Assembly (NCBI GenBank): GCA_964572155.1
Contig: CAZNDZ010000002.1
Span: 19,089-83,088, forward strand
Length of the DNA stretch: 64,000 nucleotides
Source of the DNA: an uncultured Planctomycetales bacterium
GTDB lineage: Bacteria; Omnitrophota; Gorgyraeia; Zapsychrales; Fredricksoniimonadaceae
Direction: 5' to 3'
In this document: positions 4,777-22,154 of the stretch, piece by piece
How positions within the stretch are numbered: the first letter of the stretch is position 1
Layout: every line of letters begins with the position of its first letter
Translations under genes and position numbers: made by a program
The notes under the pieces: generated by a model
What the model saw: the letters and a program-made list of their open reading frames with translations, nothing else
Database searches by the model: none
Told to the model about the DNA's origin: nothing

Positions 4777-5310
4777 TTAATATAAATAGTTGATAAACTG
4801 AAATGAGATACCGTTTTCTGAAATATAATCAGAAATAACAGGCTCTTTTAAAGATGGCGGGATTGTTGGGAAATGAACATCGCAGCCGAAATCACCTTCT
4901 ACCTTGGTTACATAAATGGCAGAATAACGCTTTCTTGGATCATTTAAGATCGTTTCAAAAATACTACTACCACCAATGACAAAAATATTCTCAATGGATG
5001 CATCTTTCTCTAATCTATCTATAGCATCCTCTAGTTTGCCATGCACCCAAACATCTTTTGGAAATGAATCTTGTTGTTGTTTTTTGGTTAAAACAACATT
5101 GATTCTACCTGGCAATGGACGCCGATTTTCAGGCAAAGAATCCCATGTCTTTCGACCCATGATCACGGCATTCTTCTTTGTTGGATGACTAACGGAAGTT
5201 GTGATTTCTTTAAATCGTTTTAAATCAGATGGGATATGCCATGCTAAGGTTCCAGACTTACCAATACCTTGCTTTTCATCCATCGCTACAATGATTTGAA
5301 TTTTTTTCAT
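4777..5310 (-). CDS. folA: Dihydrofolate reductase
   Basis: [38 protein letters not shown] and VIMGRKTW...IGG are DHFR signatures. ATG verified at 5310. 4-nt overlap with thyA. Confidence 0.85.
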
Positions 5311-6122
5311 ACAGCAATTGGAAATTTAATAAAAGCAGCAGGTTTATATCCTGTTAATTTAAAATCTTCGAATTTATAATCCAAAACATTTTTCTTTGGT
5401 AATTCTAATTTTGGAAGCTCTGTTGGCGTTCTTTCTAGTTGCGTTTTAATGCCATCGACATGATTCAGATAAATATGCGCATCACCCAATGTATGGGTAA
5501 AAATACCTGGGACTAAATTGCATTCTTGAGCAACCATGGTCATCAATAATGCGTAGCTTGCAATATTAAACGGCACGCCTAAAGCCACATCTGCTGAACG
5601 CTGATACAATTGACAATCAAGACGGCCATTGGCTACATAGAATTGAAAAAACGCATGACATGGCGGCAAGGCCATCTTATCGATATCCCCCACATTCCAC
5701 GCGCTCACAATGATTCTTCGTGAAGTAGGATTAGTCTTAATTAGATGCAGGGCTTGAACAATTTGATCAACATAGGTTTGTTTATAGGACTTTGTATTCT
5801 CATCAAAAACGATTTTTGGCCAACGACGCCATTGATACCCATAAATAGGGCCTAATTCTCCATCAGGCTTTGCCCATGCATTCCAAATGGGTGTGTGTTG
5901 GGTTAAATCATCGTTAATATTTGTAGATCCTTTTAGAAACCAAATGAGCTCATAAACAACAGCATCAAACAAAACTTTTTTTGTGGTTAACAAAGGAAAA
6001 CCATCGCGTAGATCGTATTTGGATTGGTAACCAAACACGGAGATAGTACCCGTCCCTGTACGGTCTTCTTTGCGTTCACCGTTATCTAAAATATATTTTA
6101 CGAGTTCTAAATATTGCTTCAT
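5307..6122 (-). CDS. thyA: Thymidylate synthase
   Basis: [26 protein letters not shown]...; PPCH; [11 protein letters not shown]. The track start at 6131 is GTG. ATG at 6122 forms an ATGA overlap with the upstream stop. Confidence 0.9.
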
Positions 6123-8152
6123 GTGCGCCACATTTTATCACGGTATTCTTCCACCATGCGTTGGGTGTTAAAGAAAGCTCCTCGATAAATACAATTGATC
6201 ATTTTATCAATCCACTCACTTTTAAGATCTATGGTCCCATTCTTATTGGTTTGATAATATAGCGTCATGACTTTCTTTAAAGCCTGACACAATGCTGCGG
6301 AATCTTCATCTAAACGCAAATCACTTTCTGAACCAATTTCTTTACCATGATGCTCATAACCAAAAATCCAGCCAATATTATCATGCTCTGCTTCAACCAC
6401 CCATCCATCAAGGGTTGATAATTGCACAACACCATTTAATATAGCTTTCATCCCACTGGTTCCTGAAGCTTCAAATGGAGGCAATGGATTATTAAGCCAA
6501 ACGTCTACAGAGTTGCTTAACAATTTACCAAAGTAGGTGTCATAGTTTTCTAAAATTAAGACTTTGATCACATCGTAATTGGCATTTAGCTTATCGATAT
6601 GGCTTAAGATTTCTTGAATATGGGCTGCACCAATATTATCATTTGGATGCGCTTTGCCTGCTAAGATGATTTGAATCGGACCTACCGTTTTAGCTAAATT
6701 CAAAACTTCATCGATACGATGAAAGATCAACGACGGACGCTTATAGCCCGTGATGCGCCTTGCCCAACTGACGGTTAAAACATTCTCATCTAATTTCCAT
6801 GGCTTAACCACATCAAACAAAGCCCGCTTATTGACTTGATGGGCAATAAATAAATCTTCTCGAAATTTCTGATCATCTTTTAACTTTACGATTTCTGCTA
6901 AATTCTTAGGATTTGAGCGCCAATCACCTAAAACGTGATTGTACTTATCAAACAAATGGCCAAAGCTTTCAGATAACCATGTGTGTAAGTGAACACCATT
7001 GGTGATTGCATCAATATGATTCGCAAAATCAGGGAACTGAAGCCGCATGATATCACCATGCTTTTGTGCTACAGCATTTGTACGACGACAATTATCCAAA
7101 CATATATACGTTAAATTAACATCTGTAGAGGTCTTAGTTTCTTTACCATATTGCTGCATGACATCAGTATATTCATCTGTAAAGATATCAGTCAAATCGT
7201 TAATACCAAAACGATCATGGCCAGCAGCCACAGGTGTATGACACGTATAAACAAATTTCTTTTTTTCTTGTTCCATTAAACGCGGATCATTTAATTGCAA
7301 AGCTTTTTCAACTAAAGCAAAGGCCGCATGACCTTCATTTAAATGATACGTCGCAGGCGCAATATTAAGCTCTTTTAAAGCTTTCATCCCACCAATACCT
7401 AAAATGGAACGTTGAAAAATTCTCCATGACACATGATCACTGCGATATAACTGATCGGTAAGTTGTCTGAAATGCTCACTATTTTCAGGAAGATTTGAAT
7501 CGAGCAAAACTAAAGGACATACTTTGGTTTTATCAAAACTATATACATAATATTTCCAAAGGCGCAAGTGTAAATCACCTGTCTTCGTCGGAATAATCAC
7601 GCGATTCTTAAGGGGAATAAGTCCTGGATAACTTAAGGGATCCCAACTTAATTCTTCAGGTACTTGCCCGTGTTTATACCAAAAGTTTTGTTTAAAATAC
7701 CCTTTATTCCAAAGAATACCTAACGCAACAACTGGTAAACCTAGATCTGCAATACTTTTTACAGTATCCCCCGCTAAAACACCTAGCCCACCACTATAAA
7801 TAGGAATATCCAACATTTTATTAATGTTGATTTTAAATACATAGTCCGATAACCAATAATTCGAAAAAACCTCATGCTTAAAAAATTGATTCTTAGGACT
7901 CATGGAACGGTTAAGCTTTAAAGAATTGTAAATACTTGGCGCTAAGCCGTATTCCATGGAGAAATATGCTATTGGGTTTTCTTTTGCATTTAGAAGCCTT
8001 GCCTCTGCTTCTAAAATGGGCTTAATTGGAAAACCAAAGTAGGTCTCGCTGTTAATATCTTGGGAGTAATGATTAAAATTCTCTATGTGGCTGATGAATT
8101 GATCGTATGTCATATGTGAGTTTTTATTATAACAAAAGGGTTTTAATTTCAA
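6119..8152 (-). CDS. Alpha-glucan (glycogen/maltodextrin) phosphorylase family protein, GT35
   Basis: YFSMEYGL near the N-terminus and the PLP-lysine motif [14 protein letters not shown]. Confidence 0.75.
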
Positions 8153-9693
8153 ACCCCTAAATCATAAATAAAAATATCTCCTTGGGATTGCGCTGCTGAC
8201 AAGAAATGTAACGATCGAAATAAATCTTGATTATGGTCCAAGACAAACCTCTCAAGCAAATCTCGATTTAAATGTGGCATCTGTTTTATCAGGGTTGATT
8301 GTGATCGTAACTGCTTAATAAACGCTAACTCTTCTAAACTAAAACGACGCTCATCTGTTGTCCATGAGATATACAGCTGTGGATCGATGATCAAATAACG
8401 GTACCCTTGCCTAACATATGCAGCTGTTTCTTCCAAAGATTTTGGCAAAGCCACAACATCACGCACTTCATCCACAAAAAGCTGTTCAAGCACTGGTTGC
8501 GTGGTGATCATTTTTGCTTTGTGATCTATGGTCTTTACATCAGCAATTGCTTTGGCGTACGACGTTGTACTAAAGATCACAGCACTATTCGTAAATATAA
8601 AGCCGATGATCATGGCTAAAAATATCCCCGTGGCTACCTTCGCATGCATTTTGTATATCTCACCAATCACGTAGGCTGTTGCCATGCAAGCAAAAGGCAA
8701 AACAACACATAAATACCTTGCTCCTTTTTCTGCCGCAAATGAGAATATGAACATTTGTAATAAGACAATCAAGAATGGCAACAACACGCTGAACTGACGC
8801 TTGAGACAAAGATAAAAACTGCAAAAAAACATAAGCCCAAATATGACATTTTCTAACTTGAATAGATAATATGGGAAGGATAAAAAGTTATACCATTGTC
8901 TATAAACTCCTGATTCACCCGCCTGGTTTAACATCCACGCCGCATTGACTTTTAAATTGATACCATTCTCCAAAAGTCCAAGCAGGATAAAACCTGCCGC
9001 ATACATAGCAAGAAAACCTAACAGCTTTTTAAAATCCAACTTACTTCGCTCAATATATGCATCTAATCCCCATATCAGGATTACAAAAATAGGCGCTACA
9101 ATCATGCGGTAATTGGTTAAAAAAACTGCAAACATGCAAAGCGCTGATGCAGCAACCATGAGATTAAAACTTTTCTTGCTAAAGACAAAGCAATACATCC
9201 CCCCTAAAAATAACAATGTGCTCAATGCTTCTTGCATGCCCTGCCTGGAATAAAATACATGGCTTGGTAATAATGCTAAGACAACGGCGCTTACAATTGC
9301 TATGGGTGTCGATTTAAAATAACGACGTGCAAAGAAAAACGTTAGCCCTATTGTCAATAAACCACAGATGGCTGATAAAATGCGCGAAAAATACAACCCA
9401 TCGACACCCACAATAAAAACCCTCATATTAACTAAAAAAAACCACAAAGCCTTAGGCGTTGTTAAAGCGGTATTAAAAATTAATTTTAGGATGATTAGAA
9501 ACTCAGATATATTTTTGGGAGGGTTATGTTCAACAAGATTAAGAAATGAACGATTGTAGGCTAAGTACATGCCTTCATCATAAAATAGAAAGTCTTGGGT
9601 TGTAATATGGTAAAAGCGCACAAAGAGCGCCAATATTACGACACAAAAGAGCCCACAACTAACGATAGATTTGAAAGAGTACAGTGTTTTCAT
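8149..9693 (-). CDS. GT-C fold glycosyltransferase, ArnT/PMT-like (GT39/GT83-type) polytopic membrane protein
   Basis: At least 10 predicted TM helices. DE motif (FLFYDEGMY) in the first extracytoplasmic loop after TM1, as in ArnT/PMT enzymes. C-terminal soluble domain. 35-nt overlap with the TPR gene. Confidence 0.55.
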   Translation of the reverse strand: MKTLYSFKSIVSCGLFCVVILALFVRFYHITTQDFLFYDEGMYLAYNRSFLNLVEHNPPKNISEFLIILKLIFNTALTTPKALWFFLVNMRVFIVGVDGLYFSRILSAICGLLTIGLTFFFARRYFKSTPIAIVSAVVLALLPSHVFYSRQGMQEALSTLLFLGGMYCFVFSKKSFNLMVAASALCMFAVFLTNYRMIVAPIFVILIWGLDAYIERSKLDFKKLLGFLAMYAAGFILLGLLENGINLKVNAAWMLNQAGESGVYRQWYNFLSFPYYLFKLENVIFGLMFFCSFYLCLKRQFSVLLPFLIVLLQMFIFSFAAEKGARYLCVVLPFACMATAYVIGEIYKMHAKVATGIFLAMIIGFIFTNSAVIFSTTSYAKAIADVKTIDHKAKMITTQPVLEQLFVDEVRDVVALPKSLEETAAYVRQGYRYLIIDPQLYISWTTDERRFSLEELAFIKQLRSQSTLIKQMPHLNRDLLERFVLDHNQDLFRSLHFLSAAQSQGDIFIYDLGV

Positions 9694-10555
9694 CCCAATG
9701 ATGCAAATCCTCTATATCACGATTTCGACGCCAACCATCTTTTTCTTGGAAATGCTTAAATGAAAGCAAGTCTTGTTTCTGACTTTCCACATCCCCTATC
9801 ATCCGCATGATAGCGGCTTTTAATTCATATGCTGCAGCGTAATTTGCCGCCACCTCAATGCTACGTAACGTAAAGGCCAACGCTTCTTTTATATATCCTA
9901 AATTATAGGATGCATATGCGGCATAATAAAAAATTTCAGGATCTTTTGGAAAAATTCTCATGGCACTCGCGGCATATTCGAGAATACCATCATAAGATTT
10001 TAATTGAACCAAACACTCAAATAAATGATTATACGCCATTAATTTATCCCATGGTAATCTTTGCTCAAAGTAGTAATCAAACATAACATGGTGTCGAAAT
10101 TTAGGATTTATATGTAGCGCATCTAATAAATCAGATTTGGTTTTTGGGATTAAATAAATCGCTTTTTTATACAATTCTTGAGCTGCTGCATAATCCTTTT
10201 GTCCCTGCTTGATCACCGCTAAGTCATAATATAACGCGTATAATTTGGGGTCCATGCGAATGGCAATGTTGTATTGTTCTATGGCTTTAGCCGTGTCCTT
10301 TAAATAATAATAACAAAATCCTAAATTAGCATGCATCGCTGCCGTTGAGAATTTTCCTGCGAGCAGCGTTTGATAATAAGCTTTTGCACGTTTAAATTCG
10401 TTTCTATCAAAAGGCTTTGTTCCGTAAGAGAAGAAATGCAAGTAGTCTGCACTCGGTCTAGAGGAATTTAAAACATCATCTGCCACTTGTCCTCGGTTAA
10501 ATGCAAAGAACAAAACCACAAACATGACGACAAAAATGATCCACCCACGCATCAT
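9659..10555 (-). CDS. TPR-repeat protein with N-terminal membrane anchor
   Basis: N-terminal TM (IIFVVMFVVLFFAF) followed by multiple TPR-like A/Y-rich repeats (AKAYYQTLLAGKF..., AKAIEQYNIAIRMDPK..., AQELYKKAIYL...). Start moved to the ATG at 10555, which makes an ATGA overlap with the upstream stop (the track start at 10645 would overlap by 94 nt). Confidence 0.55.
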   Translation of the reverse strand: MMRGWIIFVVMFVVLFFAFNRGQVADDVLNSSRPSADYLHFFSYGTKPFDRNEFKRAKAYYQTLLAGKFSTAAMHANLGFCYYYLKDTAKAIEQYNIAIRMDPKLYALYYDLAVIKQGQKDYAAAQELYKKAIYLIPKTKSDLLDALHINPKFRHHVMFDYYFEQRLPWDKLMAYNHLFECLVQLKSYDGILEYAASAMRIFPKDPEIFYYAAYASYNLGYIKEALAFTLRSIEVAANYAAAYELKAAIMRMIGDVESQKQDLLSFKHFQEKDGWRRNRDIEDLHHWDENTVLFQIYR

Positions 10556-12582
10556 ACCCGTTTCACCCAGGTTAAGAAAATGCACCATATAAAGAAGCAA
10601 TAAAAGATTAAAAACACACCCATATATAAATAGTTGCCACCCCAAGGTTCAAATTCAAAACGCACATGCGACATACCCTTAGGCAAAACAACACCTTTAA
10701 AAGCATAATTTGCACGGATTAAATGAACAGGCACATCATTTACAAAAACTTTCCAGCTTGGATGATAACTGTCGTTATATACCAAAAATTTGTCTGTCGT
10801 CAAAGATGCCGTCAATTGTAATTGATTGGCATTAAACGCATCAACGCGAATACCTTGATCTTGACTTTCAACAAGCTTGCCTTGTGGCATAATCGAATAC
10901 CATTCAAGAAAATCTTCTAAACGGCTAAACGGTTGCATTTTTATTGTTGGCTCATACAACACAAACTTATGTCTAAAATATTGGTCTAGGTCGACAGAAT
11001 GACCATAGGCCTGCGACAAATCATTGGACCATACTGTTGGATAGCCATAATGCGATGTAATAAAATGATCCGCATCTTTCATGGCAATGATATGCCAATT
11101 ATAAAAACGATAGACATCATTGGGCTTTAAAACATCTGAAGAAGTCTTAGGCCTGACAAAAGCAAACGCTGGTTTTTCTAAAGGAATAGTTACAGCATTC
11201 TTAATAATGGCGGAAGGTTCCATTTGATCGAATTTTTTTGCATGCGTGGTCATAACATTGAACGGCTGAATCAATGCAATTACCACCAAGACCAACTTAA
11301 CAAAGATAATGTTCTTTCCGAAGAATGTTTCCACCCTTTGCCAAACAAAGTTGAAATTTTGTAAAGCCCATAAGATATAAAACAAAATGATAAAAGGAAT
11401 GAGTAAAAAGATATTTCTAAATAACTTAAAGAAATGAATATGATTAAACAAAAACTCATAAACAGGTGATAATCTAGCAATCGCAATTAAAAACAACACA
11501 AAACATACACACGCAAACAACAGCATCTTACGGTTAATTTTTACAAAGAAGCCTAAGAAGACCAACACATGCGCAAGGATTGGCATATAGAATATGCGTT
11601 GATTATCAAAAGCAATTGCATCAAGGGTATAAATGCTCCTTGAAAATTCCAGCATCCGCGCCTTTAACAATGATATTAACGTTGCAAATATGGAATGATC
11701 CCTCATGATTTCAGATATAGGAATCCCTGAATCTTTAACCATATTATAATCAACCGTGGTCGCACGGGCTAAAACAACAAAATCACCTCTCAAAAATATC
11801 CAATTTGCAAAACTAACTCCAATGGCAGCACATAGGGCTAAACCACCAAGCATGGCAATCCATGGACTTACAATCACCCCTCGGTATACTTGCCCAACTG
11901 TTTGATAAAGATTTTTAGGATACAAGATTAATAGGAATGCTAAGATCACAAGCGACGTCGTTAGAAAATAAAATGGTATATATGTTGTCATGATCAACAT
12001 AAACAGAAAGATCATCCACATAAGACGAGACGTCTTTTGTGTTTGAATATAATCCATTAGCAGGAAATAAAACCAAATCGATGGGACAACAATGAGTATC
12101 AAGGTGACTTGCGTAAACACCGTCATGGAATACCCAGAAAAAAGAAATAACAGAAAACCTAAATACGCTAAGAATGAATTCTTGATTAATCGATGCAGTA
12201 AAAAATACACACCCAACGCGCCAAACATCAAATACAACACAATTGTCCATATAAAACTATGATAGAAATTCACACCCAACTTATTTAATAACAAGGTGAT
12301 TACCCACAACGGATTATATTCACCAACTTGACAGACATGCCCCATGCCCCAATGAACAAAAGGATTCCAATGGGCAAAAACACCAACCATTAAATTAGAT
12401 AGAAAATATTTTACAACAGCGTATACAGCAAAAGTATCTTCACTGACAAATACATCACCCAACAAAAAACCTCTATAAATAAAACACCATAAAGCAATTG
12501 GAAGAGCGAACTTGAAGGTAGATTTAACGCGGGATAATAAAGGCATGAATGAAAACCACGATGACCCTATTTTGACGGCCAA
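10552..12582 (-). CDS. YfhO-like GT-C family membrane protein (polytopic N-terminus, soluble C-terminal domain, C-terminal TM)
   Basis: About 12 TM helices in the first 440 aa. The C-terminal region (YHPSWKVFVNDVPVHLIRANYAFKGVVLPKGMSHVRFEFEP) matches the YfhO-family C-terminus. Acidic SED motif after TM1. Confidence 0.5.
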   Translation of the reverse strand: MAVKIGSSWFSFMPLLSRVKSTFKFALPIALWCFIYRGFLLGDVFVSEDTFAVYAVVKYFLSNLMVGVFAHWNPFVHWGMGHVCQVGEYNPLWVITLLLNKLGVNFYHSFIWTIVLYLMFGALGVYFLLHRLIKNSFLAYLGFLLFLFSGYSMTVFTQVTLILIVVPSIWFYFLLMDYIQTQKTSRLMWMIFLFMLIMTTYIPFYFLTTSLVILAFLLILYPKNLYQTVGQVYRGVIVSPWIAMLGGLALCAAIGVSFANWIFLRGDFVVLARATTVDYNMVKDSGIPISEIMRDHSIFATLISLLKARMLEFSRSIYTLDAIAFDNQRIFYMPILAHVLVFLGFFVKINRKMLLFACVCFVLFLIAIARLSPVYEFLFNHIHFFKLFRNIFLLIPFIILFYILWALQNFNFVWQRVETFFGKNIIFVKLVLVVIALIQPFNVMTTHAKKFDQMEPSAIIKNAVTIPLEKPAFAFVRPKTSSDVLKPNDVYRFYNWHIIAMKDADHFITSHYGYPTVWSNDLSQAYGHSVDLDQYFRHKFVLYEPTIKMQPFSRLEDFLEWYSIMPQGKLVESQDQGIRVDAFNANQLQLTASLTTDKFLVYNDSYHPSWKVFVNDVPVHLIRANYAFKGVVLPKGMSHVRFEFEPWGGNYLYMGVFLIFYCFFIWCIFLTWVKRV

Positions 12583-13283
12583 TAAATGTCTCGAGTTAAT
12601 ACAATGATGGTTGTCAAAACTGCTTTAATGCTTTTAAAACTTAATGCTTTGGACTTATCGTGCTTACGACCTACGTGTTCAAAATAAATTGTTTTATAAT
12701 TATGGTCAGCTCTTAGCAAACGGATGATACATTCTGCCAAAGCGGCCAATCCTGTTGACTTAATCGGGATTGACTGCAAGAGATCACGGCGGCAAATAAA
12801 AGCGCCATTATAATATTTTAACTTTAATCCAAAGATCACATTCATCAATCCAACAAACATCCATGATAAGAAACGGCGCAACAAGGATCGTCGGTTGGTT
12901 TTTTTCATGTATGAAATAACAATGTCTGCTTGCCCGCGCGCTAGGATCAAGTCCTTCAAGGATTGTGCGGCCATATCATTATCACCAGGAAAAACTGTCA
13001 CAAAGTCCTTCGTTGACATTTTAACGCCACGGGAAAAAGAATACCCAAAACCTTGATTAGATGCATTGACTGCAACCCGAATATTAGCATTGCCCTCTGC
13101 TTTGATCCTTGCAAAATCACCCGTTTTATCCGGACTTCCGTCATCAACAACAATGATTTCATAATCCTGAACCAAAGAAGATACAGCAGCAACCGCATTA
13201 TCAATAGCGGCTTCTATATTATCCTCTTCCCTAAATGCAGGGATAATCACGCTGACACTTTTATGGTTGGACTTATTGGACAT
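12567..13283 (-). CDS. GT2 glycosyltransferase, polyprenyl-phosphate sugar synthase type (GtrB/CsbB/ArnC/DPM1-like)
   Basis: SVIIPAFREEDNI, IIVVDDGSPD, DGDN-like FPGDNDM, and C-terminal TM helices, as in GtrB/ArnC. Confidence 0.75.
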   Translation of the reverse strand: MSNKSNHKSVSVIIPAFREEDNIEAAIDNAVAAVSSLVQDYEIIVVDDGSPDKTGDFARIKAEGNANIRVAVNASNQGFGYSFSRGVKMSTKDFVTVFPGDNDMAAQSLKDLILARGQADIVISYMKKTNRRSLLRRFLSWMFVGLMNVIFGLKLKYYNGAFICRRDLLQSIPIKSTGLAALAECIIRLLRADHNYKTIYFEHVGRKHDKSKALSFKSIKAVLTTIIVLTRDIYWPSK

Positions 13284-14328
13284 TTTTTGTTTTTAGGATA
13301 ATACGCCCTGCTTCACCTTGCGCAAGAACGCTAAATGCTTGATTGATATCTTCTAAGTTAAAACGATGTGTGATCATTTTATCAAAAGGTAAAACCCCTT
13401 GTTTAAAACTACGGGTGTATTTGGGGATATCTCGATCTGGCAACGATTCACCACCCCATGTTCCAACAATGCGCTTGCCCTTGATTAGATCAAAAGGATG
13501 CAATGAAATTTTTTCATCTTTGCTTAAATTACCTGCAATGACACAAATACCTGTCTTCTCTTTAATGGCACTAAATGCATTTTCCATGGCGAGCTTATTA
13601 CCAGAGGCATCAACCGTATAATCAACACCACCTGGAACAATGGCGGCTATTTGCTGTAATAAATCAGGACTTTTGGCATTTAAGAAATGTGTCGCTCCTA
13701 AACGCTTCGCAAAATCTAATTTCTTTTGTTCAATATCAATGGCTATGATTGTTTTAACACCCCGACGCTTCGCCCCTAACACAACACTTAATCCAATACC
13801 TCCAACACCAAAAACAGCCACCGATGAACCCTTGGCAGCATTAACGGTATTTTCCATAATACCGCATCCTGTTAAGATGGCGCAACCTAAGATCGATGCC
13901 ACATCAGGCCTAATGGACTTTGAAATCTTGGTCACACGATTTTCTGAAACAACCGTTAAATCTGCAAATGTAGTAACCCCTCCAGCATTAATTGTCTTAC
14001 CATTCAACAAATATTGACTGTTGATTCCATCTAAACCTTCCCCTTTAATCCATGAAAGGCAGACATAATCACCCTTTTTAACTTTTGTAATCCCTGCGCC
14101 ACAATCAACAACAATCCCAGATGCTTCATGACCAAGTAAATGAGGCAAGAATTTATCAGGTCCTTTTAAACCTATCATCTCATTGTATTGAGCACGACAT
14201 ATGCCGGTATACAAAACGGAGACTAAGACTTGACCTTTTTTAAGGCGAGGGATTTCAACATCATCAATAACAAGAGGCTTATGAAGTTCCCAGAGGATGG
14301 CCGCGCGTGTTTTCATGGGATAAACCAA
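13273..14328 (-). CDS. Zn-dependent alcohol dehydrogenase (MDR family)
   Basis: GHEASGIVV zinc site, structural-zinc region, GVGGIGLSVV NAD Rossmann motif. Confidence 0.8.
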   Translation of the reverse strand: MVYPMKTRAAILWELHKPLVIDDVEIPRLKKGQVLVSVLYTGICRAQYNEMIGLKGPDKFLPHLLGHEASGIVVDCGAGITKVKKGDYVCLSWIKGEGLDGINSQYLLNGKTINAGGVTTFADLTVVSENRVTKISKSIRPDVASILGCAILTGCGIMENTVNAAKGSSVAVFGVGGIGLSVVLGAKRRGVKTIIAIDIEQKKLDFAKRLGATHFLNAKSPDLLQQIAAIVPGGVDYTVDASGNKLAMENAFSAIKEKTGICVIAGNLSKDEKISLHPFDLIKGKRIVGTWGGESLPDRDIPKYTRSFKQGVLPFDKMITHRFNLEDINQAFSVLAQGEAGRIILKTKNVQ

Positions 14329-14969
14329 TAAAAATCGCCGGTGTAATTTACTTCTTTAAATAAAGCTTTCCAAGCATCAACGTGCATATAAGTTAGCGCC
14401 GTTAAATTCCATGCATCCATACGCTCTTTTTCTTCAGGAGTTCTATACGCATCCATCGTCACAAAAGAACCCTTCTTAGCAACACGTTGAATTTCACGAA
14501 GAGATTGCTTACAGTCTTCGGGTGGCAAATTATGTATGGTGTTGATCGATATCACCACATCAAAACTTTTATCAGCAAATGGCAATTTCTTGGCATCACC
14601 TACTTGAACAAATGGCTTGATGGATTCAATAGTATTTTCAATGGCATACGTTGAGATATCAATGCCACGCACTTTAATGCCAGGGACAGCTAAGGTTAAA
14701 TCATATAACATAAAACCTTTACCACTACCCACATCAAGCACTGTACTATCCTTGGTTAAACCAAAATGCTGGATAAAGGTTGGCATAACGGGTTGCCAAA
14801 ATCTTGGATTATAGCTATACCCACCATAACCATACTTTCGGTCACCATCAAAATATTCTTTTCCAAATTGTCGGCCGATACGACGATCTTCTTCGGTCTT
14901 TTCTTGACCACGCTCAAAAACTTTACGATTTGCTTTCGGATAATTTACTAAGAGATCAATTTCAGCCAT
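14313..14969 (-). CDS. Class I SAM-dependent methyltransferase
   Basis: Motif I VLDVGSGKGFMLYDL; typical post-I acidic residue and motif II. Confidence 0.7.
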   Translation of the reverse strand: MAEIDLLVNYPKANRKVFERGQEKTEEDRRIGRQFGKEYFDGDRKYGYGGYSYNPRFWQPVMPTFIQHFGLTKDSTVLDVGSGKGFMLYDLTLAVPGIKVRGIDISTYAIENTIESIKPFVQVGDAKKLPFADKSFDVVISINTIHNLPPEDCKQSLREIQRVAKKGSFVTMDAYRTPEEKERMDAWNLTALTYMHVDAWKALFKEVNYTGDFYWFIP

Positions 14970-16726
14970 TATGCAGACACCTTCATGATTGCTAATAATT
15001 CAGCCGTAGGGATTTTAGGATTTAAGTCTTCTAAACCAGAACCAAATTTAAGCATAGGTTCAATTTTTTGATCTGGATCAATCATCAAATCACAAACAAC
15101 AGGACCTTGCATGGCTAAAACTTTTTGTATGCCAGAAACCAACTCCTGATGATTGGCAATGCGTATGGCCGGTATGCCAAATGCTTCTGCAGTCTTAACA
15201 AAGTCAGGAAAGCTTAACCCAGTCTTTTGATCTACCGCCGCATAATTAGAATTAAGCCACGTATCGATTGTTTGCTTTTGAATGGCATGCCCATCATTAC
15301 TAAAAATAAAAACTTTAACATTCATATTGTATCGACGGATCGTTGCCAATTCTTCTATGTTCATCATCAAACCACCGTCACCCGTCAAGCATAAAACACG
15401 CGAAGCGCCAGCACAAATGGCACCAACACTAGCTGAGAGCGCATATCCCATGGGCGTATGATTCCATGCTGAAAAAATACGTTGACCCAACTTCATTTCA
15501 ATCGCTTGCAAGGTCCAAGATATATTAGCCCCTGTATCGGTTACATAGACATCTGTATTAACAGAAGCCTTAGAGATTTCCTTAACAAAAACATGCCCAT
15601 CAACAAAATCTTTTCTGTCATACTTTGATGGTGGACAAATTGGATACTGCTTGGCCCATTCTTGAATTTGATTTCTCCAGGCAACATAACGATCTTGATT
15701 CCCGTCACACAAAGAAATCAATAATTTAAAGAACAATGGTAATGGTGACTGAACACCCAAATCTAAACGAAAATCATTTTGAGTAAACTTACTTAACTCG
15801 TGTGGGTCTATATCTATTAAAACTTTTTTTGCCTTTGGTGCGAATAACGTAGTCTTACCACCTGTAATCATTTGAGATAATCTTGTTCCAGCACCAATGA
15901 TTAAATCTGCATTTTGCGCTGCAAAATTTCCTGAGCGTGGACCAACCACACCTAAGCCACCCATATTTAGCGGGTCATCATAAGCCATGATGTCTTTGCC
16001 GCCCCATGTCAATAAAATTGGTATGCCTAGTTTACGTGCAAAATTTAATACAGGATCTATCGCACCTGCAATACGAACGCCTGCTCCTAAAACAAGGACT
16101 GGTCTTTTTGCATCTTTGATCCATCCAATCAATTGGGTTGCTTGCTCACTACATTCTGGATAATGATCTTTTGCTGGCACAGGAAATTCACGCAATTGGC
16201 TGACATCAATGTCCATGCGTTGCAAATCATCAGGTATGTCAATCACAACTGGACCTGGTCGATCATGTGTTGCAATATATAACGCTTTTTGTAATTCATA
16301 CTTAATGTCATATGGATCCATCACGCGAACAGAATACTTTGTAATAGATGAGAACAATGAAACAACATCAGTTTCTTGAAAACCTTTTTGACGCAACTTT
16401 TCACTAGGGCGCAACCGCGGCGTTGTAACTTGACCACAAATAAATAAACAGGGAATAGAATCAAAATACGCATTGCAAATGCTGGTCGTTAAATTTGTGG
16501 CACCTGGGCCGGATGTGACCATGACAGTACCAACTTTACCACTAATACGCGAATAGGCATCCGCTGCTGCACCACCAGCTTGTTCGTGCTGAACACAGAT
16601 ATAATCCATATCTTTGTGTCGAGCCACAGCGTCTATTGAGTGAATAATGGCGCCGCCAGAGACTACAAAAACATGTTTGATCTCATGACCATGTAAAAAT
16701 TGTGCGATATAATCCGCTAATTTCAT
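14969..16726 (-). CDS. Thiamine-diphosphate enzyme of the acetolactate-synthase/YerE type (TPP + FAD-like middle domain)
   Basis: N-terminal TPP_enzyme_N (HVFVVSGGAIIHSID), central domain, and C-terminal TPP binding motif GDGGLMMNIEELATI...N. Confidence 0.8.
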   Translation of the reverse strand: MKLADYIAQFLHGHEIKHVFVVSGGAIIHSIDAVARHKDMDYICVQHEQAGGAAADAYSRISGKVGTVMVTSGPGATNLTTSICNAYFDSIPCLFICGQVTTPRLRPSEKLRQKGFQETDVVSLFSSITKYSVRVMDPYDIKYELQKALYIATHDRPGPVVIDIPDDLQRMDIDVSQLREFPVPAKDHYPECSEQATQLIGWIKDAKRPVLVLGAGVRIAGAIDPVLNFARKLGIPILLTWGGKDIMAYDDPLNMGGLGVVGPRSGNFAAQNADLIIGAGTRLSQMITGGKTTLFAPKAKKVLIDIDPHELSKFTQNDFRLDLGVQSPLPLFFKLLISLCDGNQDRYVAWRNQIQEWAKQYPICPPSKYDRKDFVDGHVFVKEISKASVNTDVYVTDTGANISWTLQAIEMKLGQRIFSAWNHTPMGYALSASVGAICAGASRVLCLTGDGGLMMNIEELATIRRYNMNVKVFIFSNDGHAIQKQTIDTWLNSNYAAVDQKTGLSFPDFVKTAEAFGIPAIRIANHQELVSGIQKVLAMQGPVVCDLMIDPDQKIEPMLKFGSGLEDLNPKIPTAELLAIMKVSA

Positions 16727-17400
16727 TTAACCCCCACACCCATACCAAAAATATAGTGGCACATTGGTGCAAAACCTGTGGTTAAGACTTCATCATTCAT
16801 GCCAAACATAAACACACGTTTAAAATATTTGCTCATTAAGGCATTGAGTGATTTCTGGCTATGTAAATTGATGTGCTGAACGCGACTACGTTCTGACGCA
16901 TAATCATTGGCTGTGATATTTGGGGTCCCAATGATACAAACACCATCTTTTTTAAGAATCTTGGCTTGGGATTCAACAAAGGGATCATTTAAATGATTAT
17001 CTAAATGTTCAATAACATCAATCGAATAAGCCCCGTCGAATTTCTCTTTTGGTAATTTCAAATCTTGTATGGTGCCGCATTTAAATTCAATGTTTTTTAA
17101 CTTTGCCAAACGTTTCTTATTACTTTCGATATGCCTGGCATCTGGTTCAATCGCCAAAACATTTTTAACATGTTGAGCAACAATGGGCGTTCCAAAAGCA
17201 TCCCCACAACCAACTTCAATGGCTGAATCAAAACCATCAAACATTTTCGCAGGAAATTTATAACGGGCCAACACAAAACCCAAATGCTTTGGGTCATGTA
17301 AGAGGCTATATGATGTCCATGGACCTAATTCTACTGAGTCAATAAACTGATAATCTGTACCTAAATGATATGCTTCTTCTTGAGTAATTTTTTTAGCCAT
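16723..17400 (-). CDS. Class I SAM-dependent methyltransferase
   Basis: Motif I IEVGCGDAFGTPIVA; acidic IEPD. Confidence 0.7.
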   Translation of the reverse strand: MAKKITQEEAYHLGTDYQFIDSVELGPWTSYSLLHDPKHLGFVLARYKFPAKMFDGFDSAIEVGCGDAFGTPIVAQHVKNVLAIEPDARHIESNKKRLAKLKNIEFKCGTIQDLKLPKEKFDGAYSIDVIEHLDNHLNDPFVESQAKILKKDGVCIIGTPNITANDYASERSRVQHINLHSQKSLNALMSKYFKRVFMFGMNDEVLTTGFAPMCHYIFGMGVGVK

Positions 17401-17412
17401 ATCCTCTGCTTT

Positions 17413-18225
17413 CTATTTTAAAAATGCATTCCCAGATCTGCGCAATTTATACATATCTTGATTTCTTTTCAAAGCATTAACTAACTTGGCTCGTTTATCT
17501 TTTTTCCAAGGGTCGTAAACGATAGAAAAATTTCTGCCAGACACAACACTCTTACCCTGAGCACGAAACCATTCGATGCTTTCGTAAATATCACTTAGCG
17601 GCGTACCTTGTTTGCTCTTTAAAAAATCTTTGGTTTCAATAACCTTAAGCTTAGCCGTACGTTTATCATTTAGAATGGTATTGTGTATTTTAGTTTTTGT
17701 CCAGCCTGGACCAACAATAAATATATTCAAATCCTTATTCTCTGCATCTAAGAACTCACACATCTTAGCTAATAATATTTTAGAAACGGTATAGGCAGAG
17801 AAATTCTTAACCGCTCCATTCATACCACCACCAGCAAAAAGCACCACATCTGAAGTTTTCTTTTGACGGTATGGGTGTAAAACATGCAAGGCACGTAATT
17901 GAGCTAAACAATTAGTATTTACTGACGATTGCCATTCATCAAAATCCGCATCAAAGAACGGAACAACAGGCAATGGATGACCCACACAAGATATAAAAAC
18001 ATCCCATCGCAATTTTCGTTGTTTAAAGAAAGAACCTAAAGCAATAATATCTTTTGATTTTGAAACATCGCACTGTATTAAGGTGCAGTGTTTATGATTT
18101 TTAATTGCTGCTAAATTACCTTGGCTTCGATACGTACCAATAACCTTAAAACCATCTGCTAAATAACGCTTGGCCATATCTAGGCCGATATCACTGCTAA
18201 TCGATAAAATAAAAACAGTGCGCAT
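17413..18225 (-). CDS. Short-chain dehydrogenase/reductase-like protein (divergent)
   Basis: Degenerate glycine-rich N-terminus (ILSISSDIG), YTVSK (YxxxK) catalytic pair, overall SDR length. Confidence 0.5.
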   Translation of the reverse strand: MRTVFILSISSDIGLDMAKRYLADGFKVIGTYRSQGNLAAIKNHKHCTLIQCDVSKSKDIIALGSFFKQRKLRWDVFISCVGHPLPVVPFFDADFDEWQSSVNTNCLAQLRALHVLHPYRQKKTSDVVLFAGGGMNGAVKNFSAYTVSKILLAKMCEFLDAENKDLNIFIVGPGWTKTKIHNTILNDKRTAKLKVIETKDFLKSKQGTPLSDIYESIEWFRAQGKSVVSGRNFSIVYDPWKKDKRAKLVNALKRNQDMYKLRRSGNAFLK

Positions 18226-19256
18226 TAGTAGGGCCCGACAAAGGTGTCGACTATTTTTTCTTTGAAATCAAATTTATCTTTACGCTCTAACAGCTCGTAT
18301 GCCGTTGCTATGATGGTTTCAAAGTTAGGATAAAAAGCTTCTTCCAAAGGCTTTGAAACTGGGCACGGTGATTCTGGCCATGTGATGCGCTTAACGGGTG
18401 CTTTTAAATACTCAAACGCTTTATCTGCAACAACCGCGGCAACTTCTGACGCAAAACTACAGCGTAACCAGCTGGTATCAGCGACGATCAATTTGCCTGT
18501 TTTTTGCACGGATTGAATGATGGTTTTCTCATCTAAAGGATTAATGGTGATCGGATCAATGACTTCGACGCTAATCCCAACTTTTTCTAATTGTTCTGCG
18601 GCTTTCAAAGCTTGGCTCACCATCCATGATGTCGCCACAATGGTTAAATCTTTTCCAACACGTGCAATGCGTGCTTGTCCAAAGGGAACGGTGTAATAAT
18701 CTTGCGGCACATCCATTTTAATATCATATAAGGAACGATGTTCCAAGATAACGACAGGCGAATCTGACTTTAGTGACTGTAAAATGATGCCTTTGATATC
18801 ACAGGCATTGCTTGGCATGGCAACGATCATGCCTGGAAAATGCGCTAACACAGACTGAATACTTTGAGAATGCGTTGGGCCTTGCCCCCACCCTTTACCA
18901 ATTATGCCACGCACGACGATCGGCACCACAGATTTTCCAGCGTAGGTGTATTTCCATTTTGCAGCATTGTTGATCATCTGATCCAAAGCCAAAAACATAA
19001 AATCATTACGTGCATGCACAAGCACTGGGCGTTTTTTATTTAGCGCAGCACCGATCGCAACACCTGTTAAAGCATTTTCAGATGCTGGTGTATCAAAAAC
19101 ACGGGCATTACCAAATTTTAAGAACGCGTCGCGTGTCGTATTAAAAATGCCTTTGTAATCATCGACACCAAGACCAAAGATAAAAACATTGGGATCCTTA
19201 TCCATGCCTTGGCATAACGCTTCACTAATTGCTTGTCCGTATGTGATTTCACGCAT
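18225..19256 (-). CDS. TPP-dependent dehydrogenase E1 component, beta subunit (transketolase-like pyrimidine-binding + C-terminal domain)
   Basis: REITYGQAISEAL...FIFGLGV matches the E1 beta pattern. Confidence 0.8.
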   Translation of the reverse strand: MREITYGQAISEALCQGMDKDPNVFIFGLGVDDYKGIFNTTRDAFLKFGNARVFDTPASENALTGVAIGAALNKKRPVLVHARNDFMFLALDQMINNAAKWKYTYAGKSVVPIVVRGIIGKGWGQGPTHSQSIQSVLAHFPGMIVAMPSNACDIKGIILQSLKSDSPVVILEHRSLYDIKMDVPQDYYTVPFGQARIARVGKDLTIVATSWMVSQALKAAEQLEKVGISVEVIDPITINPLDEKTIIQSVQKTGKLIVADTSWLRCSFASEVAAVVADKAFEYLKAPVKRITWPESPCPVSKPLEEAFYPNFETIIATAYELLERKDKFDFKEKIVDTFVGPY

Positions 19257-19258
19257 GA

Positions 19259-20215
19259 TTAATATACCGATCTAAGTAGTTCTGAAGTTTCTGGCCAAGG
19301 TGCAGATAAAGCCAATGCATAGGCTTCATCAGATCGCTTGATCCATTTTTGATTAAGTGCATCTACATCTGCTTGGGATAACACTTTTTCCTTAACTAAT
19401 TTTTCACTGTATCGCTTGATTGGGCAACGCGACATCCACAATTCAACTTCGTCCTTGGTGCGGTAGCCTCGATCATAATCAAACAATGGCCCAACATGCT
19501 CACGAAAACGATAGGTTAAACATTCAACAAATTGCGGTGTCTGAGTCTTGCGAATTTCTTCAATGACTTTGCTAAGTGTCTGAAATACCATTTCTACATC
19601 ATTGCCATCAATTTGGGTTGTTTTTAAATCTGCAGAAGCAAGACGTTGATAAATCGGCGATGACGGTTGACGCACACTTAATGGCGAATGCGTTGAATAC
19701 AAATTATTTTCACAAAGAAACAGCACTGGGAGTTTCTTAGCTAAGGCAAAATTTAATGTTTCAGGAAAAACCCCTTCTTCAATCGTGGCATCTCCAAAAA
19801 TAGAAACTGCCACATTGTCTTTCTTATCCATTTTAAAAGATAATGCCGCGCCAGCAGCAACAGGGATCATGGCACCCAAAATTGGTGATGAATAAACATG
19901 CACCGACGGATCTGTCAAATGCGCTGAACCAGCCCTGCCACGAGAAACACCGGTGACACGACCGCATAATTCTGCAAAAAATCCATTAAAGTCCCCACCT
20001 TTAGCCAAATAGGCGGCATGACATCTGTGACCTGTAAAAACTTGATCCTCTTGTCTTAATGCCAGCGATAACCCAGCCGACACTGCTTCTTGCCCAATCG
20101 ACAAATGTGTTGGGGTCTTCATCATCTGTTCTTTGGCATAAACAGCAACGATCTTTTCTTCGGCTTGCCGAATCTTGATCATACCTTCTAATAATTCTTT
20201 TTTAGGAATGCTCAT
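19259..20215 (-). CDS. TPP-dependent dehydrogenase E1 component, alpha subunit
   Basis: LSIGQEAVSAG, GHR.HAAYLAKGG, GDATIEEG TPP motif. No E2 or E3 gene anywhere in the window. Confidence 0.8.
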   Translation of the reverse strand: MSIPKKELLEGMIKIRQAEEKIVAVYAKEQMMKTPTHLSIGQEAVSAGLSLALRQEDQVFTGHRCHAAYLAKGGDFNGFFAELCGRVTGVSRGRAGSAHLTDPSVHVYSSPILGAMIPVAAGAALSFKMDKKDNVAVSIFGDATIEEGVFPETLNFALAKKLPVLFLCENNLYSTHSPLSVRQPSSPIYQRLASADLKTTQIDGNDVEMVFQTLSKVIEEIRKTQTPQFVECLTYRFREHVGPLFDYDRGYRTKDEVELWMSRCPIKRYSEKLVKEKVLSQADVDALNQKWIKRSDEAYALALSAPWPETSELLRSVY

Positions 20216-21225
20216 TGTAAATTAACCGCTTGCATGGTTTTGATATTGTAATATTTATTATCGGTCATAGAATTAGGCACCTTACCTGCTTCAAATGCCT
20301 TGCGTAAATCGATGACAGCATCGGCAATCGTGTGCTTTGGCTTAAACCCTAACTCTTTTTGAATCTTTTCTGAAGAAATATGATACGAACGATTGTCGTT
20401 TGTTGGTTCAACAACAATTTCTATGGATGGTCGATTTAGATTATCTTTGACCATATGCGCAATTTGACTGACAGAATGATTTTCATAACCCGCATTAAAA
20501 ATCTTTCCGGCAATTTTTTCTGCTGGGTATTTTAGCGTCTCAATATATAAATCCGTCATGTCTTCAATGTGCAAATTAGGACGTTTTTGATCGCCACCAA
20601 ATACTTTGATGCGATTATTATTGATCGCATGATTGGTTAAAATATTAACAGTCAAATCCAAACGTAAACGTGGTGAATAGCCACACACTGTGGCTGGGCG
20701 TAAAACGAGCACAGTAAAATCTTTGGTCTGCGCTTTTAATAAGACATCCTCACATAAAGCTTTATATTTCGAGTAATCCGTCAAAGGTTCAAGCGGTAAA
20801 TCCTCCGTCACATTTGGCGTCTCCTTGACACCATAAACACTTGAACTCGACGCATAAATAAAACGCTGAACTTTATTTTTCTTGGAAATATCAACCAAAG
20901 GAATAAACGCATCATAATTAATGGTTTTAGCTAAATTGGGATTTAATTCATAACTTGGATCATTTGAGATGCAAGCTAAATGAATCACGGCATCTGTACC
21001 TGGAATTTCTTTTTCTAACAAGGCAACATCACGAATATCACCTTTAACGCAGGTCAATTGCTTATTATTCTTAACACCGTCGAAAACATCTGTACCGTAT
21101 AGGAACAAATCCAAAACTTTAACATTATAACCCGCTGCTAATAATTTTGGAATTAACACAGCGCCCACATAACCTGCCCCACCTGTAACAAAAACATTTT
21201 TTATCATGAGAGATACTCCTTGCAC
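20212..21225 (-). CDS. NAD-dependent nucleotide-sugar epimerase/dehydratase (extended SDR)
   Basis: VFVTGGAGYVGAVL, YSKYK. Confidence 0.8.
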   Translation of the reverse strand: MQGVSLMIKNVFVTGGAGYVGAVLIPKLLAAGYNVKVLDLFLYGTDVFDGVKNNKQLTCVKGDIRDVALLEKEIPGTDAVIHLACISNDPSYELNPNLAKTINYDAFIPLVDISKKNKVQRFIYASSSSVYGVKETPNVTEDLPLEPLTDYSKYKALCEDVLLKAQTKDFTVLVLRPATVCGYSPRLRLDLTVNILTNHAINNNRIKVFGGDQKRPNLHIEDMTDLYIETLKYPAEKIAGKIFNAGYENHSVSQIAHMVKDNLNRPSIEIVVEPTNDNRSYHISSEKIQKELGFKPKHTIADAVIDLRKAFEAGKVPNSMTDNKYYNIKTMQAVNLQ

Positions 21226-22130
21226 TTACGTAAGACATTTTCGGGCAATATATAATTCATACAAAAATCTTTATTAGTACAATATGGCATATAACACGGC
21301 ATTTGAGGGCAATTGAGCGTCGAGGAAACCACTTCGACATTGGGAATACCCTGCATGCGCAAATAATTTGTTGGCCCGTACAAGGTTATAACTTTTTTTC
21401 CTAAAGCCTGACCAATCGCTTGCCCTAATGAATCCGAAGTTACAATGATACGACAACTGTTAATCCATTCAATATATTTGACGAGATTCTTGTGCCCTTG
21501 TTGCCAACTCACAGAATACTTGCCTTGTAGCAACATTTCAAGCTTCTTCCAATGATCCATGGGCCATGCTTTGGTCGGCCATTTGCTGCCAACAGAATGA
21601 TTAAATCCTACATCATATTTAATACGGACATGACGGCCATTGCCCAAAACCAACCCTTGCCCGTTCCACTTCTTATCTACAGTTTCGTACAATAACTCTA
21701 GGGCATTTTTAGGGATATCACGTTGATTTTCTTGACCGGATAATAAATAACGCGTTGAACGTTTGCGCGTCGTGATTTGATGAGACTTATCGTTGAAATA
21801 AAATCCAAACTTCTTCTTCGACGTGATGCGATTGATCAACGTGCAGATGCCAATATCTTTTTCTAAGTTGATTACAATATCAAACTTTTCCTGGCATAAA
21901 TCTTCCATAACTTTGGAGCCAAAAATAAGTAAACGCGAAATATAGGGATTATTTTTCAAGAGTTGTTTGGCTTGCCAATCCGTTACCCACGCCACATCAT
22001 CATCTTTGTATATATGCAAAAGAGCGGTACAAATAAGAACATCGCCTAGACTGACCGTTGTAGAAATGCCGCGGTCAAGAAACTCCGAAAAACCAGTTTT
22101 TATGATCAAAACTTTTCGTTTTTGTTTCAT
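21204..22130 (-). CDS. GT9 family glycosyltransferase (heptosyltransferase-like)
   Basis: KVLIIKTGFSEFLDRGISTTVSLGDVLICTAL... matches the GT9 N-terminal pattern. C-terminal IIVTSDSLGQAIGQALGKKVITLYGPT matches the GT9 donor-binding region (ADP-heptose enzymes: D.G..HLA.A.G.P.V.LFGPT). Confidence 0.65.
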   Translation of the reverse strand: MKQKRKVLIIKTGFSEFLDRGISTTVSLGDVLICTALLHIYKDDDVAWVTDWQAKQLLKNNPYISRLLIFGSKVMEDLCQEKFDIVINLEKDIGICTLINRITSKKKFGFYFNDKSHQITTRKRSTRYLLSGQENQRDIPKNALELLYETVDKKWNGQGLVLGNGRHVRIKYDVGFNHSVGSKWPTKAWPMDHWKKLEMLLQGKYSVSWQQGHKNLVKYIEWINSCRIIVTSDSLGQAIGQALGKKVITLYGPTNYLRMQGIPNVEVVSSTLNCPQMPCYMPYCTNKDFCMNYILPENVLRKCKEYLS

Positions 22131-22154
22131 GAAAGATCTAAAATCATTTGAGGA

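Follow-up and report, generated by a model that had tools for sequence, protein, structure and literature searches.

A YfhO-like GT-C glycosyltransferase with a probable membrane-anchored TPR partner beside a core GT39-like GT-C of Omnitrophota

Four closely spaced genes occupy positions 8149-13283 of a 64-kb window (the whole stretch of DNA analysed, 64,000 nt of contig CAZNDZ010000002.1, assembly GCA_964572155.1, from an uncultured member of the Omnitrophota, a phylum of the PVC superphylum), and we describe here the glycosylation system that they appear to encode. In order of transcription, they are a small family 2 glycosyltransferase (GT2), a YfhO-like glycosyltransferase of the GT-C type, a tetratricopeptide repeat (TPR) protein, and a second, GT39-like GT-C (Table 1). 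Lipid-carrier systems composed of a GT2 and a GT-C are a standard bacterial route for decorating envelope molecules outside the cytoplasm. An earlier note, written from the letters of this DNA alone, had placed the four genes at these coordinates; our list of open reading frames (ORFs) confirms the placement, with all four on the minus strand. The window has a GC content of ~38-40%, the region is transcribed almost wholly from the minus strand, and a tRNA scan of the 64 kb found no tRNA genes.

Table 1. Features of the four-gene locus and the genes on either side of it (coordinates are those of the 64-kb window).
Feature	Coordinates	Strand	Size or basis
YfhO-like GT-C glycosyltransferase with C-terminal periplasmic beta-sandwich domain and final transmembrane helix	10552..12546	-	664 aa
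Transmembrane-anchored TPR protein, probable dedicated partner of the YfhO-like GT-C	9659..10555 (alternative start ATG 10588)	-	TPR_2 9.3e-11 and other TPR models
GT39/GT83-like (PMT/ArnT-like) GT-C with C-terminal periplasmic alpha/beta domain; core Omnitrophota gene	8149..9693	-	514 aa
Small GT2 without transmembrane helices, putative polyprenyl-phosphate sugar synthase (DPM1/PpgS-like size; cluster c6/GT2a type)	12567..13283	-	238 aa, PF00535
Variable island of putative sugar-tailoring genes	13273..23117	-	Pfam and NCBIfam results
Alpha-glucan phosphorylase and thymidylate synthase, conserved backbone downstream	5307..8152	-	TIGR02094 1.1e-124; synteny

Since the Pfam matches of both polytopic proteins are below threshold, sequence families alone do not prove either one a glycosyltransferase, and since profile searches of both families against PDB sequences gave no match, a comparison of folds was needed. 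We found that the predicted structure of each protein has a GT-C fold and that an acidic residue of the first external loop is conserved in both families, as in the GT-C superfamily (GT-C_A type). In the YfhO-like family (alignment A2, 18 homologs), D37 of the SEDTF motif after the first transmembrane (TM) helix is conserved in at least 90% of the sequences; in the GT39-like family (alignment A1, 41 homologs), Y38-D39-E40 after TM1 is invariant. Hence, both polytopic proteins are genuine GT-C enzymes, as that note had proposed, and neither is the membrane protein without a GT-C fold that it had named as fatal to its proposal.

Membership of the known families is a different matter. Against the Pfam YfhO model (PF09586), the YfhO-like protein scores 27.0 bits relative to a gathering score of 28.5, and the match covers only its last ~78 residues (573-650, on model positions 751-829 of 835); some homologs pass the gathering score, on the same C-terminal stretch only. 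The GT39-like protein scores 16.7 bits with PMT (gathering score 22.7), its GT22 match is also sub-threshold, and we found no NCBIfam match and no MIR match for it. Many of its orthologs carry PF02366 or PF13231. From these profiles we regard its clan relationship to PMT and ArnT as real, with membership of GT39 PMT or GT83 ArnT not shown; its neighbours are glgP and thyA rather than arn genes. Neither GT-C of the window matches DUF1736 in Pfam. Of the family assignments proposed earlier, GT2 (PF00535) and TPR have Pfam matches; YfhO and PMT fall short of their gathering scores, as does GT22.

The TPR protein has one N-terminal TM helix followed by TPR repeats at residues ~80-280, so that its membrane anchor, expected from the earlier note, is borne out and its topology fits a periplasmic location. 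Its junction with the YfhO-like gene is an ATGA overlap of 4 nt (10552-10555); this overlap exists as claimed before, but the NCBI call adds 11 codons at the N-terminus by using ATG 10588 (309 aa). The claimed 35-nt overlap between the TPR and GT39-like genes is real and recurs in three other loci (L001, L004, and L005).

The earlier note had joined the TPR protein to the PMT/ArnT-like GT-C, as one four-gene module in which the TPR protein binds the substrate of a split TMTC/PMT protein O-mannosyltransferase. We found instead that, in every testable Omnitrophota genome locus (L001, L004, L050/L078, L058, L064, and L073), the gene right after the YfhO-like one encodes a TPR protein, and that the two are also adjacent in L080, L082, and L084, where the YfhO-like homologs are only 24-27% identical to the window protein and where we saw no GT39-like gene in the vicinity; in L080 and L084 the pair sits among housekeeping genes. 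A metagenome scan with the A2 profile gave 80 further YfhO-like loci, 69 of which have room downstream. At 47 of these 69, a gene of the same TPR family starts -120 to +11 nt from the YfhO-like stop codon (E 1e-10 to 1e-75, except 5e-06 in L094); at two others the TPR gene is within 3 kb, and at two more it is fused to the YfhO-like gene by way of an extra TM helix. Independent BLAST clustering detected this family at 63 of the 80 loci, the median offset being -16 nt. The adjacency of TPR and GT39-like genes is confined to close relatives of the window, other genes separate them in L050/L078, L058, L064, and L073, and ~70 orthologous GT39-like loci have no adjacent TPR gene.

Fusions point the same way. 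An exhaustive representative search gave 5393 relatives of the YfhO-like protein (297 at E<=1e-30), and among the best 150 we found two YfhO-like::TPR fusions, P0200 and P0277; a further one, P0289 (871 aa), belongs to the 90%-identity cluster of P0200. The C-terminal extension of P0200 matches the hidden Markov model of the separate TPR partners at 1e-14. In both P0200 and P0277, one extra TM helix and a linker with positive charge separate the last YfhO-like TM helix from the TPR repeats, precisely the topology that a fusion of the two window genes would be expected to have. Hence, the extra helix places the TPR domain on the periplasmic side, which is that of the catalytic loop. In comparison, there was no GT39-like::TPR fusion among the best 120 of 193 GT39-like homologs, whose lengths are 478-573 aa.

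In 11 of the 69 metagenome loci, a TM-anchored mini-protein of ~75 aa replaces the TPR gene. An N-terminal module is common to the TPR partners, the fusions, and the mini-proteins, and consists of an Arg, a TM helix ending in VD or VN, and then a Tyr-rich motif. The mini-protein is highly conserved (...RNIxWWALLALLLSSSVNWRLCTIERGKYLLGIFYNGYYQNTSDGIVYKDYLKTHG...) and can be aligned to this module in the TPR partners; it lies directly downstream of one YfhO-like subfamily, in L088 (2139-2438), L090 (2922-3152), L097 (3743-3970), L112 (5980-6204), and seven more loci.

Since the TPR gene is adjacent or fused to the YfhO-like gene in most loci while ~70 GT39-like loci lack a neighbouring TPR gene, conservation across genomes marks the TPR protein as a partner dedicated to the YfhO-like GT-C, and its position next to the GT39-like gene in the window as specific to this lineage. 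The neighbourhood data largely refute the split TMTC/PMT model, which we consider very improbable: the TPR gene pairs with the YfhO-like gene even where no GT39-like gene is near. A single polypeptide with a PMT-clan GT-C, DUF1736, and TPR repeats, as in TMTC proteins, is not what the window encodes; the TPR protein has a gene of its own. We found no description of a YfhO-like/TPR pair in the literature on YfhO with TPR and on Omnitrophota glycosyltransferases.

In nine metagenome loci, among them L119 (5572-5928), a PilZ-like protein of ~119 aa is encoded directly upstream of the YfhO-like gene, which hints at control of the YfhO-like glycosyltransferase by cyclic di-GMP in some lineages. The window itself carries GGDEF and EAL genes in its conserved backbone (25562-26524 and 3530-4702).

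The GT39-like gene has a different distribution. A scan of one genome per GTDB species gave 77 loci, almost all titled Omnitrophota or belonging to mislabelled bins, with which the window proteins were compared by tblastn and whose upstream ORFs were clustered. Homologs come overwhelmingly from Candidatus Omnitrophota metagenome-assembled genomes, and those with names are called 'glycosyltransferase family 39 protein' or 'ArnT-like'. The backbone runs ...MoaC-TerC...GT39-like-GlgP-ThyA-DHFR-EAL regulator..., and GlgP or ThyA is downstream of the GT39-like gene on the same strand in 58 of 60 loci with room. Judged by this synteny, the GT39-like gene is an independent, phylum-wide core gene of the Omnitrophota. 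It often has a GT2 of its own: in 25 loci a different small GT2 (c3, ~238 aa, PF00535 3.4e-15) lies within 400 nt upstream. The c6 type found in the window is directly upstream in seven loci and in some others is separated from the GT39-like gene by intervening genes; 38 of 70 loci have no adjacent GT2. No c3-type GT2 is present anywhere in the 64-kb window.

Public annotations of the GT39-like protein differ at its start (490 aa vs 514 aa, P0001 against P0287). The 490-aa call would delete TM1, and the homologs, the second call in the same cluster, and a nearly invariant M1 support 514 aa. Downstream, the alpha-glucan phosphorylase ORF called mechanically (6119-8152) has a TTG start, which lies across the stop codon of the GT39-like gene. 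Since its ortholog in L001 starts at the equivalent position, this gene probably starts at ATG 8113, which would leave an intergenic gap of ~35 nt.

The GT2 matches Glycos_transf_2 (PF00535) with E=1.5e-19 and contains the VDDGS and GDND (DXD) motifs of a GT-A catalytic domain. Its top sequence matches among solved structures are all polyprenyl-phosphate glycosyltransferases, namely Pyrococcus DPMS (5mlz, 1.2e-9), ArnC (9hwj, 8.5e-9), and GtrB (5ekp, 2.8e-8). The NCBIfam ArnC model covers residues 7-220 at 49.8 bits, far below the cut-off of 529, and the models for PpgS and Dol-P-hexose transferase also align sub-threshold. These matches are suggestive of, but not diagnostic for, the polyprenyl-phosphate sugar synthases to which the GT2 had been assigned earlier. 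A scan for hydrophobic segments found no TM helix in its 238 aa. The 16-nt overlap previously claimed between the GT2 and YfhO-like genes lacks support: it needs the alternative TTG at 12582, up to which the YfhO-like ORF is open, but the L001 ortholog and the NCBI call (664 aa) point to ATG 12546. A gap of 20 nt is more likely on this comparison of starts.

Upstream of the GT2, the genes of the variable island encode a zinc-dependent alcohol dehydrogenase (Zn-ADH), a methyltransferase, a thiamine pyrophosphate (TPP) enzyme like ALS and YerE, a second methyltransferase, a short-chain dehydrogenase/reductase (SDR), E1 beta and E1 alpha, an NAD epimerase/dehydratase, a GT9-like protein, and a radical SAM protein. 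The E1 alpha/beta pair is pyruvate-dehydrogenase-like, and the epimerase/dehydratase is of the nucleoside diphosphate-sugar type. No NCBIfam equivalog was found for any island gene. The earlier note had suggested that these upstream genes make the donor sugar; tailoring genes are present and vary together with the GT2, but neither an equivalog nor a nucleotidyltransferase was found. TPP-dependent E1/transketolase-like and ALS/YerE-like enzymes, methyltransferases, SDR, and Zn-ADH recur in the contexts of L078 and L082, whereas the contexts of P0277 and L083 have DegT aminotransferases, hexapeptide acetyltransferases, and GFO oxidoreductases instead. Hence, tailoring genes repeatedly precede the small GT2 and the YfhO-like gene with a chemistry that varies by context, which supports the donor role suggested for them. 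From its gene content, the island of the window is plausibly a pathway for a branched-chain, methylated sugar.

The stretch from the radical SAM gene to the TPR gene (~9.66-23.1 kb) is absent from most GT39-like loci, being inserted between TerC and the GT39-like gene, and the island accompanies the c6-type GT2 in only a subset of loci. This raises the alternative that the juxtaposition has no function, the YfhO-like/TPR pair and the GT2-tailoring island being a mobile or variable cassette that landed beside a core gene, with the three enzymes using unrelated donors made elsewhere. YfhO-like/TPR pairs without any GT2 nearby and the 38 GT39-like loci without an adjacent GT2 fit this explanation. 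Four observations do not: c6-type and c3-type GT2 genes stand before the GT39-like gene in seven and 25 loci, independent contexts that differ in sugar chemistry repeatedly have a small GT2 and tailoring genes directly ahead of a YfhO-like gene, the genes are tightly spaced on one strand throughout, and GC content is not clearly different from that of the flanks. We consider such a chance neighbourhood improbable.

The fullest arrays are those of L050/L078 and L064. They run from tailoring genes through GT2a, two small membrane proteins, the YfhO-like and TPR genes, an SDR, and an epimerase to GT2b, a 708-aa polytopic protein, GT2c (c3), the GT39-like gene, ..., and GlgP, with ThyA next in L050. 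With GT2a, the enzyme encoded ahead of the YfhO-like gene in L078, the window GT2 shares 52% identity, and with GT2b 46%; it is essentially unrelated to GT2c. Neither homologs of the two small membrane proteins (c26 and c28) nor the 708-aa protein were found in the 64-kb window, which looks, on this comparison, like a reduced arrangement with one GT2 ahead of two GT-Cs.

The c26/c28 proteins are paralogous-looking, have ~160-200 aa with roughly three TM helices and a soluble C-terminal domain, and have no Pfam match. They are encoded between the GT2 and the YfhO-like gene in L001 (6154-6633 and 6525-7139) and L078 (6881-7396 and 7409-7975), and directly before the GT39-like gene in L023, L066, and L007. 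By analogy with ArnE/ArnF, the pair is a candidate heterodimeric lipid-sugar flippase. A GtrA-family flippase gene, followed by a gene for a second, much larger YfhO-domain protein (>1150 aa), lies downstream of the YfhO-like/TPR pair in L082 (9832-12523). The polytopic protein of 708-713 aa that follows GT2b where a GT-C would be expected (L078 13604-15730; L064 7061-9202) has no Pfam match; hhalign showed no relationship of the 708-aa L078 protein to either GT-C profile of the window, and it was rejected as a third GT-C. Another group, the c49 proteins of ~1120-1155 aa, precedes the c3 GT2 in L038, L054, and L073, and at least one of them (L038) is weakly similar to the C-terminal domain of the YfhO-like protein.

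Among characterised systems, GtrA/GtrB/GtrX, ArnC/ArnEF/ArnT, and CsbB(GtlA)/GtcA/YfhO(GtlB) are among those closest to the window: a GT2 nearest to DPMS, ArnC, and GtrB is followed by one or more GT-Cs with an acidic motif in the first external loop, and tailoring genes are adjacent. Unlike these systems, the window has no flippase gene, its GT2 is without the pair of C-terminal TM helices that GtrB and ArnC have, a single GT2 is followed by GT-Cs of two families, a TM-anchored TPR subunit is dedicated to the system, and the host belongs to the Omnitrophota. The window system works like such a three-component system and does not qualify as bona fide YfhO, PMT, ArnT, or TMTC. Relative to ArnT (GT83) and to bacterial and fungal PMT (GT39), the GT39-like protein stands apart by the lack of an arn operon and by its phylum-specific synteny beside glgP, thyA, and folA.

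A precedent for one GT2 serving two GT-Cs comes from streptococcal protein O-glycosylation by Pgf and GtrB/PgtC2, where PgfS serves PgfM1 and PgfM2 in one operon (PMC12041528). Like the window, this operon has one GT2 with two GT-Cs; these GT-Cs are annotated as having a YfhO domain, and the cluster includes an epimerase or tailoring gene. Its enzymes match the YfhO model, however, whereas the window protein matches only over its C-terminal ~78 residues and below threshold; it has no TPR partner, and the second GT-C of the window is PMT/ArnT-like rather than YfhO-like. Eukaryotic TMTC1-4 and Pseudomonas TfpW, like the window family, combine a GT-C membrane domain with lumenal or periplasmic TPR repeats, which here form a separate subunit or, in relatives, a C-terminal fusion. 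What differs is that the catalytic partner here is YfhO-like rather than of the PMT/TMTC clan and that the TPR module mostly forms a protein by itself, anchored by a TM helix of its own, or in some lineages is replaced by a 75-aa mini-protein.

The 664-aa YfhO-like protein also resembles, and may belong to, 'component 27', a dark GT-C family of bacterial proteins with a median of ~665 aa, annotated as uncharacterised YfhO, whose GT-C fold is related to STT3 and PglB and distinct from Bacillus YfhO (Durairaj et al. 2023, PMC10584680). The section of that paper on this family mentions neither a TPR or mini-protein partner nor a GT2 context.

Since the TPR protein pairs with the YfhO-like GT-C and the GT39-like gene is an independent core gene, the four genes are best read as two juxtaposed units. 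We think it likely that the locus brings together two periplasmic glycosylation units, both dependent on a polyprenyl-phosphate sugar, with the TPR protein belonging to the YfhO-like GT-C. Of the earlier interpretation, a lipid-carrier glycosylation locus with one GT2 and two GT-Cs survives; a single integrated four-gene module does not.

The first unit would comprise a cytoplasmic or peripheral small GT2, the YfhO-like GT-C, and the membrane-anchored TPR protein that goes with it. Its GT2 would load a sugar onto polyprenyl phosphate. This sugar is probably unusual, branched or methylated, and supplied by the TPP/E1/methyltransferase/dehydrogenase island. A flippase would then translocate the lipid-linked sugar, a step that the c26/c28 pair or GtrA may perform in relatives, and the YfhO-like GT-C would transfer it to an acceptor in the periplasm. 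Recruiting or positioning this acceptor may be the task of the TPR protein (N-in/C-out) as a subunit without catalytic activity, a role that a fused TPR tail or the ~75-aa TM mini-protein could take in other lineages. The second unit would be the GT39/GT83-like GT-C, presumably a phylum-wide housekeeping enzyme usually served by its own distinct small GT2. That dedicated GT2 is not adjacent in this genome. Both GT-Cs probably draw on the single window GT2, in the way that PgfM1 and PgfM2 depend on PgfS.

Several observations weigh against this interpretation. Seven of the 69 metagenome loci have no partner at all, and none of the Pfam matches of the window proteins to YfhO, PMT, and GT22 reaches its gathering score. 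The GT2, resembling TM-less members of PpgS/DPM1 size, is without the C-terminal helices of GtrB and ArnC, and its placement in the lipid-phosphate family is based on matches of E ~1e-9 and sub-threshold NCBIfam matches. No nucleotidyltransferase was identified in the island, which leaves the nucleotide-sugar route incomplete. There is no recognisable flippase in the 64-kb window and no GtrA-type gene among the neighbouring genes scanned, so that the dedicated flippase of a three-component system is missing here; it may be encoded elsewhere in the genome. A c3-type GT2 elsewhere in the genome could undercut a shared donor. In addition, the YfhO-like protein ends in a beta-sandwich similar to domains associated with carbohydrates, which favours a glycan over a protein acceptor.

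With a glycan acceptor, the enzymology would be the same but the YfhO-like/TPR unit, and possibly the GT39-like enzyme, would decorate the lipopolysaccharide core, O-antigen, or another envelope polysaccharide by side branches, as Gtr and Arn systems do, and the TPR protein would be a scaffold for polymer or export machinery, as in BcsC, PgaA, AlgK, and PelB. This is a serious possibility, somewhat short of an even chance. Besides the beta-sandwich domain, it is favoured by the GT9 (heptosyltransferase-family) gene in the island, by the teichoic acid glycosylation of Bacillus YfhO and Listeria GtlB (PMC5836110, PMC8035078), and by the glycans that three-component systems commonly decorate (PMC11127046). 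However, TPR repeats fused to a GT-C are best documented for protein substrates, in TMTC and TfpW (10.1101/2020.04.19.049825), YfhO-family enzymes also O-glycosylate proteins (PMC12041528), and many YfhO-like/TPR pairs lie among housekeeping genes, outside polysaccharide loci. Clustering of the neighbours of the 80 metagenomic YfhO-like loci gave no gene that recurs as a candidate acceptor; what recurs are epimerases, further GT-C-like proteins, and the PilZ protein. Since the enzyme has a TPR partner and since the YfhO-family enzymes PgtC2 and PgfM1 O-glycosylate proteins, we lean slightly toward a periplasmic or surface protein over a glycan as the acceptor.

A further-reaching proposal, which we put forward tentatively and consider rather unlikely as a whole, is that the YfhO-like GT-C and its TM-anchored partner form an undescribed obligate two-subunit enzyme, a prokaryotic analogue of TMTC that O-glycosylates periplasmic or surface proteins of the Omnitrophota with exotic, lineage-variable sugars. 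Its likeness to TMTC would have evolved independently, and the sugar here would be branched, methylated, and built by TPP-dependent enzymes.

The main value of the locus is a conserved GT-C/partner pair and a GT-C that is core to the whole phylum, and its analysis corrects the partner assignment made from the sequence by itself. How GT-C enzymes choose their acceptors is poorly understood, and a conserved, separable TPR or mini-protein subunit of a large, functionally dark YfhO-like family, perhaps the one flagged in 2023 as a 'new glycosyltransferase family' (PMC10584680), would give a handle on this choice. In the Omnitrophota, which are uncultured, in part dependent on hosts, and uncharted in their envelope biochemistry, the GT39-like gene identifies a phylum-wide core GT-C.

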